This document shows, in pieces, positions 1-3,000 of a stretch of 13,175 bases of DNA. The stretch comes from a virus (lineage: Duplodnaviria > Heunggongvirae > Uroviricota > Caudoviricetes): the IMG/VR virus record IMGVR_UViG_2579778919_000007, one strand, 5' to 3'. The position numbers are program-made. Numbering within the stretch: position 1 is the first letter of the stretch; each line of letters opens with the position of its first letter.

Positions 1-3000
1 TTATGGCCTTGTATTTCCTTTTCTTAACTTCTTTTCGCTCTTTTTTACAAGCTTAATTAACCACTCTGGCTCATCCGACAGTTCGGAGTAATAGCAGTAT
101 TCTGGTATTGCTTTCCAAAATGTTGTTATTGCATCAGCAAATTCAACAAACTGTTCTTCTGTTACATGCAGATCATCATGAGTAGGATTGATATGTCTGC
201 CGCATATACCAGTAGGATGAGGGTAATATTCTGGATGAGTTGATGATAGGAGGCGGTGAGAATTTCCATCACCATGTTTGTACACATTTACGACTAATGC
301 GCACGCTTTGAGCTTATCGCCATAATCAGTTTCATCTATCTTGAGACCGATCCACTCGAGCAGTTTCAACAGTTGATCAAAATTTAAATCCCAAACCATT
401 GGTGTAATGATCTCTTTATCACACCAATGAGACAATTCTCTGATCGTTTTTTCTCGTAACTTTTTATCGAACTGGTGATACATACCCGCAGTTACTGCCA
501 AAAGAACAGTTTCTTGCATTTCAATAAGTGACCAGACGTAGTTTACACCCTCCTCATATGCTTGCTCATAGGCTGCCATTGGGTCGTCAAAATCAGGATT
601 GAAATGCTCAGCGGTATACTCCAGAAACTGTTTCTCTCGCTCCTCCGCCTCTTGGGTCAGATCCCCAAACTGAGACAAAAGTCTCCGTCTTGCTTCCGAA
701 ACATAAAATTCGTGAGGTTCAAGAAAATAGGGCCGATCTACTTTAGCAAGCCAAAATGTCACGAAGTTATCTGATGACATAACTTATCCTTGATAATTAT
801 TGTATGGATAGATTATCCAGAAATTTGCGAACTGAGTCGGTCATTTTTTTTTGTGTGCGCGTGATGTAATAAAGGTTCAGGAATATACTGTCAGTTTACT
901 GAAAAACTGGCAACAGAGGCGGTTATGAGCGAGAGTTACGAGTTCTCAGCAGGTTGTTTTTTGAAGCTATCAATATCTTCAGGGTATTTCACTATCAAAA
1001 TTCAGGGAGATCTCCCCGCTCGTGCAGCTAGTGCCATCTTGGCAGATGATGTCGAGCAGGTTTTATCTCAACTAGACAAATGTTTTCAGCTGAGTAATAG
1101 GCAACGAGAAGGGATCGTTAAGTATCTTATGTCGAAGGGGATGCAGCCTTGATGACTTGGATCACCCAAACAGATAACTGGACAGGGATCGCGGCGTGGG
1201 CGGGTTTTGCTTTGTCCGTATTTCAATTACTAAAATCCAGAACATCGCTAAGGCTTTATCTCGGATGTGATCAGCACGAGGACAGGATATACGTTTCGAA
1301 CATAAGCGCACACGATGTAACGTTGAGTGCAGCCGGTGTGGTAACAGCCAGTGGACGCCTTAGAATGTTATCCGACGAATATTCGGACGAGAACATGATC
1401 ACACCGATGCTGCCAAAAAGATTGAAAGCACGAGACGAAATGGTCTTGAACGTGCCATTCATAAATAAGGCTCATCACAACAAAGTGCATCATCGTGGCG
1501 GGGTTTATATCAAAACATCTGACGGCAAGATGTTCAGTGATGTTTGTTGGATCAAACGCCAATGGTGGTGGTTACTGTCTGTAATACTACGAGACACAAA
1601 GCGATACTAAGTTGATTGATAGTCCGAGGTGATGTTCTGCCCAGCGTAGTTGCTGGGTGATACACCTTCAATGATTCTTGTTAGTGTGTAGGGGGGGGGC
1701 ATGTTGGATTTTAAAGCTGAGTTTGTTGGCGGCAGCCATAGCGGCGAGGTTATATCACCGATGTCCGAGGTAGAACTTAATAAACTAGGGTATAGAGTCC
1801 ATTTACGTGGTGCCCCCTCTGGCGATGAAATGCCTGTACACGTTGTTGTACCTATTGAATGGTCAGCGGATGAAGCACACAGAGCCATAATGCAGCGCTG
1901 GGGTAAACGCAGACGGTAGATGTCGCGCATTTCTCTTAAACTGGCTGCTGTGTTTGGTGCTAATTATCCATGCAAAGTGGCCTAAGCTACGTGGAAGAAT
2001 GATCAGTTTCGCATTATTTGGTTCAAGGAGGGCTCCCCCACAGCCTCACTCTCTGAATGCAAAACAGCCCCACAATCCCACTGTTAAAAGTCCCAGCTTG
2101 AAAATTGCACGCTTATGGTTGCCCCTCCCTCAACTCTATAGCTCGCCCGCGCCCCCGTGTGCATGTGCGTGCCCGCGCGTCAGGGGTCGCTGAGAAACCC
2201 TAAGATTTTGCTCATCCGAGACAAGCATTACAGGAGCGTGCTACTGAGCGAGATGCTGGCTGATTGCTGTTGCTGAATAACCGTGTGGGACGAGTGCTGC
2301 GATCATCTGCCTTTCACTGTGTATCTGTACATCCCTCTAAAACGATCTGTATCGCTCTGTGCTGCGTTCTGTGCTTCCAATGTGTGATTCAATGCCTTTG
2401 TGATTTCGAGATCGTGGCGGTGCCGTGCTGATCTGCTGCGTGCGCTCTACGCTGTGTTCGCTGGATGTGCCGGGGAATGCTGCTGTGGGGCGGTGCCAGT
2501 CTCTTTCGGGTATACCTGATAAAGACATAGACACACTGTCTCATTTGACTATCTATAAAACTCTATTGACTACACATTATTGATGTGATCTCTTATAGGT
2601 CTTGCTGTGATATTTCATTGAGACTTAGGGGGAAGCATGGCACACAATGCGCTTATCTATTGCCGCGCCAGTACATCAGAGCAACACGCAGACCGGGCGC
2701 TGGGCTTGCTGCGAGAGTTCGCCAGTGATCGGGGCTGGCCTGTACGGGCGGAGTACATCGAGAACGCCAGCGGTGCGAGGCTGGCGCGTCCTGAACTAAT
2801 GCGCTTGCTGGATGATGCGCAGGCCGGAGAGGTCTTGCTTGTCGAGAGCATCGACAGGCTAAGCCGCCTTACGCAAAAGGAATGGGCGACACTGAAACAG
2901 AGGATTCAGGATAAGGGACTGGTGATCGTTGCCGTTGACCTGCCAACCTCATGGCAACTACTGAACGATACGGCGTCAGAGCTTACAGAGGGCATCCTGA

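Follow-up and report, generated by a model that had tools for sequence, protein, structure and literature searches.

A swappable cargo slot in a capsid-encoding Escherichia coli island holds a predicted HEPN-fold protein and a separable gene pair for a small membrane protein

What kind of cargo lies at the left end of the virus record IMGVR_UViG_2579778919_000007, and whom does it serve? The record, a stretch of 13,175 nucleotides analysed in full and called the window here, opens with three genes whose products we name p259, p75 and p152 after their lengths in amino acids (aa). A first reading made from the sequence alone had regarded this block, positions 1-1610, as foreign accessory cargo. 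Comparison with related islands and protein families gives a more differentiated answer. The genes occupy a swappable cargo slot next to a tRNA gene and form two separable modules, p259 and p75-p152. We put the probability that these independent accessory modules have an anti-phage function, most likely the exclusion of competing phages, at about one half.

The window is 100% identical to positions 970503-983677 of NZ_LR536431.1, from Escherichia coli isolate VREC0864, and contains nearly all of an island of ~13.6 kb. Positions 1-2090 are a tRNA-proximal, swappable cargo slot between conserved backbone segments. On the left, the 242 bp adjoining position 1 (L001 14760-15000) are 93-95% identical in sister islands and the Kosakonia locus; on the right, homology to the sister-island backbone resumes at the boundary given in Table 1. 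These conserved flanks enclose four different gene sets across the islands compared. One sister island carries genes for a 200-aa protein, a DUF3800 protein and a 136-aa protein, another has three other hypothetical genes, and E2348/69 has a 182-aa protein, a p152 homologue and a 230-aa transmembrane (TM) protein. The exact block of the window was found in 1 of 5426 complete E. coli genomes and the p259/p75/p152 triad in 10 of the 5426. Variable content between conserved flanks is the mark of a mobile-element hotspot, and we are confident that the slot holds mobile accessory cargo in such a hotspot, as the sequence-only reading had proposed. The locus is not conserved in all related strains, since sister islands hold other genes there. 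Housekeeping or phage morphogenesis genes, considered as another identity for the block, were ruled out by its rarity and by the variable slot content. The left backbone segment is also partly present in Serratia and Klebsiella islands.

The slot content is a mosaic. Positions 28-1603 are ~70% identical to a cassette in Raoultella, and positions 1149-2134 are 95.5% identical to Kosakonia arachidis, a 72-aa open reading frame (ORF) included. The first inspection had noted a low GC content at the left end, which indeed is 28.3% over the first 60 nt. It had also let the AT-rich block stop at 1610 and abut a GC-rich operon; the variable segment in fact reaches ~2090, and between the block (42.1% GC over 1-1610) and the operon lies an intervening stretch of 49.8% GC (1611-2636).

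The three ORFs were found where they had been predicted, one of 259 aa on the minus strand and two of 75 and 152 or 153 aa on the plus strand. They are genuine genes, and spurious ORFs were rejected, because non-synonymous change lies far below synonymous change. The ratio of the two (dN/dS) spans 0.03-0.10 for p259 and p152 jointly, and in every comparison the proportion of non-synonymous change (pN) is far below that of synonymous change (pS) for all three. For p75, dN/dS is 0.30, with pN 0.27-0.30 against pS 0.79-0.91. Its dN of 0.34-0.38 is about twice that of its neighbours, p152 having 0.15-0.19. RefSeq leaves p75 unannotated in VREC0864 and annotates it in strain AR_0128. The TGATG coupling of p75 to p152 that had been described is present at 1150-1154, though TTG 1149, which gives a TTGA overlap, is the likelier p152 start because homologous cassettes start in the same register. 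There the downstream NTG start overlaps the upstream TGA by 4 nt (GTGA in Raoultella; TTGA in Citrobacter and the IMG/VR contig).

p259 and p75-p152 are two separable modules, not one unit. The triad, with p259 on the minus strand, is found again in nine other complete E. coli genomes, in Raoultella, Citrobacter and Klebsiella, and in an IMG/VR contig. The nine E. coli genomes and Raoultella have it at tRNA-Thr inside a different capsid-encoding island, so the cassette has moved between unrelated island backbones. Elsewhere the genes part company. In Serratia p75/p152 occurs on its own, p259 being absent; in E2348/69 and Kosakonia p152 has neither p75 nor p259 beside it; and of 25 IMG/VR loci containing a p259 homologue, 24 have no p75 or p152. 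Among the neighbours listed for 21 of these loci there is no p152-like partner gene. The idea of a control region shared by a single three-gene unit is thus not upheld, p259 being mostly standalone and the genes being split in Serratia, E2348/69 and Kosakonia. In E. coli AR_0128 (L053 6928-8547) and Raoultella (L003), the triad occupies the tRNA-proximal island end at the tRNA-Thr/proA site, and these islands have a short tyrosine recombinase and a Phage_cap_E-type capsid.

Table 1. Features of the cargo slot, its island and related loci. Positions refer to the window unless a locus is named.
Feature	Positions	Strand	Description
p259	1-780	(-)	259 aa, stop codon at 1-3; predicted standalone HEPN-fold protein (PHROG 19541)
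Intergenic region	781-924		144 bp between p259 and p75
p75	925-1152	(+)	75 aa; small soluble protein, translationally coupled to p152; fast-evolving, Enterobacterales-specific
p152	1149-1610	(+)	153 aa from TTG 1149 or 152 aa from ATG 1152; predicted N-terminal membrane helix, beta-rich middle, Arg/Trp-rich C-terminal helix
p72	1701-1919	(+)	Candidate 72-aa gene travelling with p152 in Kosakonia
Right slot boundary	2091-2250		Sister-island backbone homology restarts at 2091, 92-93% identity (L035, L036)
Island core	2637-11286		54.5% GC; resolvase, 614-aa DEAD/DEAH helicase, scaffold-like protein, major head protein, HNH endonuclease, endonuclease VII-like protein
Second variable slot	11287-12092		40% GC, just before the integrase
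Tyrosine integrase	12093-13175	(-)	Right end of the island; IS1 just past the integrase
tRNA-Gly(ccc)	430 bp left of window position 1	Opposite p259	Left limit of the island
182-aa protein	L002 7371-7919 (E2348/69); L006 9368-9916 (Kosakonia)		Upstream of a p152 homologue

The first module, p259, was modelled with AlphaFold2 from a 40-sequence alignment. The model is confident and all-helical, with a predicted local distance difference test score (pLDDT) of 89.4 and a predicted template modelling score (pTM) of 0.83. Structures listed for it are YutE, TTHA0636 and 8xdj as well as Csm6, AF0298 and HI0074, with the sacsin HEPN domain, AbiA and HepS lower down. The four-helix up-down core that characterizes HEPN proteins is present in the model. 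In HEPN families the residue after the motif Arg is usually N, D or H, and an upstream Ex3[K/R] element is common (Anantharaman et al., 2013; PMC3710099). p259 has the motif His, a polar residue after the Arg position and the upstream acidic-x3-basic element, its two motifs being [D/E]105-x3-R109 and V164-N165-x3-H169 (N165-V-Y-K-H169-G). Across the family, H169, N165 and R109 are invariant and D/E105 nearly so; Y167, K168, H102 and K106 are further invariant polar residues. The second motif is predicted to close helix 152-169, directly ahead of a loop. The catalytic Arg of Rx4-6H, expected at the end of helix 3, is missing. Its position is V164 in p259 and V, A, I or T, never R, in 40 of 40 family members. 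Since the HEPN description fits in every respect except the Arg position in all 40, we assign p259 to the HEPN-fold families of the "His kept, Arg lost" type. The fold and motifs stand on the model and the alignment; catalytic competence and RNase activity we would at most infer.

Database searches had little to say about p259. A Pfam scan of every member of its alignment gave scattered sub-threshold matches, one relative reaching E 0.005 against Pfam HEPN. Foldseek with the model found no match in PDB or BFVD at E <= 0.001, a PDB profile search gave nothing credible, and scans against Pfam, NCBIfam and PADLOC (PADLOC-DB v2.0.0, E <= 1) returned no family. Among the PHROGs it matches only 19541, a family of no known function. 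Homology searches with p75 and p152 against PDB profiles likewise yielded nothing credible. The sequenced phages of INPHARED contain no p259 homologue and no p152 homologue, and a plasmid search gave a single weak match, in Pseudomonas. Kinship of p259 to the 182-aa protein or to an AbiTii protein (see below) was examined, and no significant relation was found; a non-significant hhalign alignment pairs VNVYKH of p259 with RNITVH of the 182-aa protein.

The genomic setting of p259 is that of a solitary gene. It had been suggested to open an operon that continues out of the window, which proved incorrect: beyond its stop codon there are only 430 bp of backbone and the tRNA-Gly gene on the other strand, and p259 is therefore monocistronic. 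Prophages carry its relatives as lone accessory genes, near which PD-T7-5 (E 4e-102), a RES/HEPN_RES_NTD1 protein and a SocA/Panacea antitoxin, among others, are encoded.

The second module is built around p152. A word-indexed search collected 28 clusters, all at least 65% identical, in which every member with a named source is from Enterobacterales. With a full hidden Markov model search, run over 1.84 billion representatives, the family grew to 25 cluster representatives (E <= 0.001), of which 10 reached E <= 1e-10. All but one of the full-length members have ~140-180 aa and a common architecture. In order, the motifs are the N-terminal hydrophobic helix, [KR]x[RK]TS, V-x-N-x-S-x-H-x-V-T, LPxRxxxR, GRxGxYVxxAxGxxFS and a C-terminal RRxWWW-type segment. 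Searches of Pfam, NCBIfam, PADLOC, PHROGs and, with narrow and wide alignments, PDB found no relation, in keeping with the earlier remark that no family is recognisable by eye for the 75/152 pair. A Pfam scan of all alignment members gave scattered sub-threshold matches, among them a single non-significant one to SieB (E 0.12). Judged by its sequence, p152 belongs to a previously undescribed family of ~150-aa proteins. We also compared p152 with the 230-aa TM protein of E2348/69 and found no relation.

The hydrophobic N-terminal helix noticed in the sequence-only reading is conserved family-wide, the window protein scoring KD19 1.15 and its relatives as much as 2.8. The Trp-rich C-terminus is equally real, ending in RQWWWLLSVIL and having 4 Trp within the last 30 residues. 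The hydrophobic segment of the window protein is flanked by no Lys/Arg on its N side and three on its C side; by the positive-inside rule the topology would then be N-out, C-in, and most of the protein would lie in the cytoplasm. The AlphaFold2 model from the narrow alignment is unreliable (pLDDT 48.9) and shows a helix at 8-29, strands within 35-100 and a helix at 132-149.

Distant p152 relatives were found convergent with a portal gene at the end of a P2-like prophage, after HicAB and ahead of an integrase, and near a Gp49/helix-turn-helix pair. Another lies 46 bp downstream of an AbiTii-domain protein (PF18864; L042, L043). An AbiTii-domain protein would also be expected in a locus of the lactococcal AbiT kind, and the window has no AbiTii match. 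This company of AbiTii, HicAB, the RNxxxH protein described below and prophage ends fits a defence role for the family. The proposal that the 75/152 pair is an abortive-infection or toxin-type module is consistent with these data but unproven.

What stands upstream of p152 varies. Gap-free p75 homologues, 37-53% identical, lie directly upstream of p152 homologues in Raoultella, Citrobacter, Klebsiella, Serratia and IMG/VR. p75 itself has no family or PDB match (Pfam, NCBIfam, PADLOC, PHROGs, PDB profiles). In E2348/69, Enterobacter hormaechei, Kosakonia and Dickeya, the place directly upstream of p152 is taken by the 182-aa protein, which contains ELFRR and RNITVH. Its RNxxxH is a canonical HEPN signature at the sequence level. 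The 182-aa protein had no match in Pfam or PADLOC and nothing credible among PDB profiles; together with p152 it is a candidate two-gene unit kept in Escherichia, Enterobacter, Kosakonia and Dickeya. RefSeq leaves the p152 homologue unannotated in E2348/69 assemblies. Downstream of p152, the p72 ORF is preceded by a run of nine G. Its region is 98% identical in DNA to the Kosakonia copy, above its flanks, and all four differences are non-synonymous. p72 may be either protein-coding or a conserved non-coding element. The exact protein occurs in public collections solely as "uncharacterised", and Pfam, NCBIfam, PADLOC, PHROGs and PDB profiles gave nothing credible. Rfam had no match over the whole window, and the 1-kb unannotated stretch 1611-2636 is therefore not a known RNA.

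The divergent region between p259 and p75 has exactly the 144 bp first reported, and its TATCC/GGATA palindromes are real: GGATA-N0-20-TATCC occurs twice in the window against 0.1 expected. The region contains GGATAGATTATCC at 806-818 and an 11-nt direct repeat, ATAACTTATCC at 779-789 and ATAGATTATCC at 808-818. A GAGG Shine-Dalgarno sequence lies 5 nt ahead of the p75 ATG, and a single weak sigma-70-like promoter match was found at 774-803 (+). The repeats are absent from the matching intergenic regions of Raoultella, Citrobacter and IMG/VR, and an operator role is therefore unsupported.

The block is one of two cargo slots in the island. In the window, the second slot contains overlapping genes for 69-aa and 124-aa proteins (PHROG 14630 and 14518, families without assigned function). 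Sister islands have one of three contents here: a YafO toxin, a clear ThsB-like TIR protein accompanied by a 242-aa partner, or a DUF3606 protein. The toxin and the TIR protein belong to this slot, not to the left one. The core between the slots encodes a scaffold-like protein of PHROG 1018 and a major head protein of PHROG 267 (E 3e-67). No portal, terminase or tail genes were seen in the island gene content, and for this reason the island resembles a capsid-encoding phage satellite more than a prophage. It is unlike P4 or classical phage-inducible chromosomal islands. Related islands are present in 57 of 5426 complete E. coli genomes, inserted at tRNA-Gly or tRNA-Leu, and their integrases are just 36-69% identical. 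No direct repeat of at least 16 nt joins the tRNA-Gly end to the integrase end (L001 14450-29100). A truncated transporter gene and the IS1 lie just outside the integrase end, and a rearrangement of the right junction is therefore possible. Neither the accession number nor the island type led to anything in the literature.

How might the two modules act? p259 would probably be an infection-triggered, RNA-targeting or RNA-binding abortive-infection factor resembling HepS. As its catalytic Arg is replaced by Val, any activity would rely on other invariant basic residues (K168, R109, K106). In the second module, the N-terminal helix of p152 would anchor the protein in the inner membrane, N-out and C-in, with its beta-rich domain and Arg/Trp-rich interfacial helix at the cytoplasmic face. 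p152 may be the effector, perturbing the membrane or blocking entry there. p75 would be made in step with p152 through the NTGA overlap and may be a lineage-specific regulator or sensor, a position that in other genera would fall to the 182-aa RNxxxH protein. These specific mechanisms, p152 as an effector gated by p75 and p259 as an infection-triggered RNase, we rate much below the anti-phage function itself. The defence-system profiles bear on the question in part. No component matched a PADLOC family (none for p259, p75, p152, p72 or the 182-aa protein); in a sister island, the DUF3800 protein matches the PADLOC candidate PDC-M04A (E 1e-21), the left slot's only defence-type match and itself a candidate.

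A bolder version of the anti-phage reading seems to us less likely than not. In it, p152 would found a new family of membrane-anchored anti-phage effectors with interchangeable cytosolic partners, a modular two-gene abortive-infection system absent from defence catalogues, and p259 would represent an active HEPN nuclease family without the Arg. The partners would be p75 in most Enterobacterales, the canonical-motif HEPN protein in Escherichia, Enterobacter, Kosakonia and Dickeya, and the AbiTii-domain protein in a metagenome contig.

It is unlikely that p75-p152 is a toxin-antitoxin addiction module stabilising the island, with p152 as a membrane-damaging toxin, p75 as its labile antitoxin and p259 as unrelated cargo. 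The pair does look the part: the small upstream gene overlaps the downstream one by 4 nt, as in type II systems, and the NTGA overlap is kept in four lineages; p75 has roughly double the evolutionary rate of p152; type II pairs typically have such sizes; and toxin-antitoxin genes (YafO, HicAB, RelE/MqsA) sit in comparable slots of sister elements. A type II toxin is, however, always accompanied by its cognate antitoxin with a DNA-binding fold, which is not so for p152 and p75. Distant p152 homologues have no p75-like coupled upstream ORF at their loci, which leaves a simple toxin-antitoxin reading unsupported. In four genera p75 is replaced by the unrelated 182-aa RNxxxH protein at ~70 bp spacing, p75 lacks a recognisable DNA-binding or antitoxin domain, and no toxin-antitoxin model of Pfam or NCBIfam matches.

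Protection without abortive infection also appears improbable. Here p259 would be a catalytically dead HEPN-like scaffold, sensor or binder, and p152 a superinfection exclusion (Sie) protein blocking DNA entry. The loss of the catalytic Arg across the whole p259 family favours this, and some HEPN families without the full motif are thought to bind substrate (PMC3710099). Yet HEPN families that keep the His without the Arg have been described with compensating basic residues, and the invariant polar residues around the p259 motif (N165, Y167, K168, H169, H102, K106, R109) suggest an active site. The membrane anchoring of p152 and its position at prophage ends resemble classical Sie genes, but the predicted topology places its bulk in the cytoplasm and the very weak SieB match is not significant.

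The weakest alternative, and a very improbable one, is that the genes serve the island's own life cycle (helper-phage interference or sensing, lysis or holin-like timing, excision regulation) instead of host defence: the island, with its scaffold-like and major-head proteins, HNH and integrase, is likely to need a helper phage, a small membrane protein can act as a holin and the cassette always lies at an island end, but sister islands with the same core carry unrelated genes in the slot, which makes the cassette dispensable for the life cycle, an unrelated island backbone has this cassette too, and relatives of p259 and p152 lie at accessory positions in ordinary prophages.

An anti-phage role for the two modules can be set beside known systems. 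HepS, a solo HEPN abortive-infection anticodon nuclease of the Salmonella Gifsy-1 prophage (PMC13043305), is by analogy a precedent for p259. p259 has no sequence similarity to HepS or to HEPN-MNT toxins (PDB 5yep, 7ae2), is roughly double a minimal HEPN domain in size, with additional helices, has Val for the Arg of Rx4-6H in all family members, and has no MNT neighbour. Alike in motif are c2405 and PaREP1/8, which keep the His and lack the Arg, other conserved basic residues possibly compensating (PMC3710099). c2405 is fused to an AbiTii N-terminal domain, which p259 lacks, and the likeness between them is one of description.

The slot itself resembles the defence hotspots of P2 phages and P4 satellites (Rousset et al., 2022; PMC9122126). 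In both, elements that are nearly identical otherwise differ in the genes of a short segment between conserved flanks, and some copies have known or candidate defence genes there. The island departs from P4 in its resolvase, its DEAD/DEAH helicase and a major head protein of its own. Such candidate cargo genes are common.

Cap15 and PycTM are TM effectors of CBASS and Pycsar systems. p152 shares with them a small size, an N-terminal membrane helix, a compact soluble domain and a prophage or satellite origin, and the same is true of a membrane-anchored protein of a Staphylococcus aureus prophage that exemplifies abortive infection or exclusion (PMC10127798). p152 differs from all of these in having no sequence relation to them, no PADLOC match, the PycTM and Cap15 models included, and no cyclic-nucleotide synthase nearby. 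Two traits set the p152 family apart, a C-terminal helix rich in Arg and Trp and an upstream partner that can be swapped (p75, the 182-aa RNxxxH protein or AbiTii).

If the cargo is protective, two uncatalogued families would join the anti-phage repertoire, an Arg-less HEPN and a small membrane protein with swappable partners, and the capsid-encoding island family would have P4-like defence slots at both ends, compact and well-bounded places in which to seek and try out new systems. If it is not, what remains is a clean description of a mobile three-gene cassette common to two unrelated island backbones. Satellite defence hotspots, solo HEPN defence proteins and small membrane-anchored exclusion or abortive proteins are kinds already known; new here are two uncatalogued families, the partner swapping of p152, and two bounded cargo slots in a little-described family of capsid-encoding islands.

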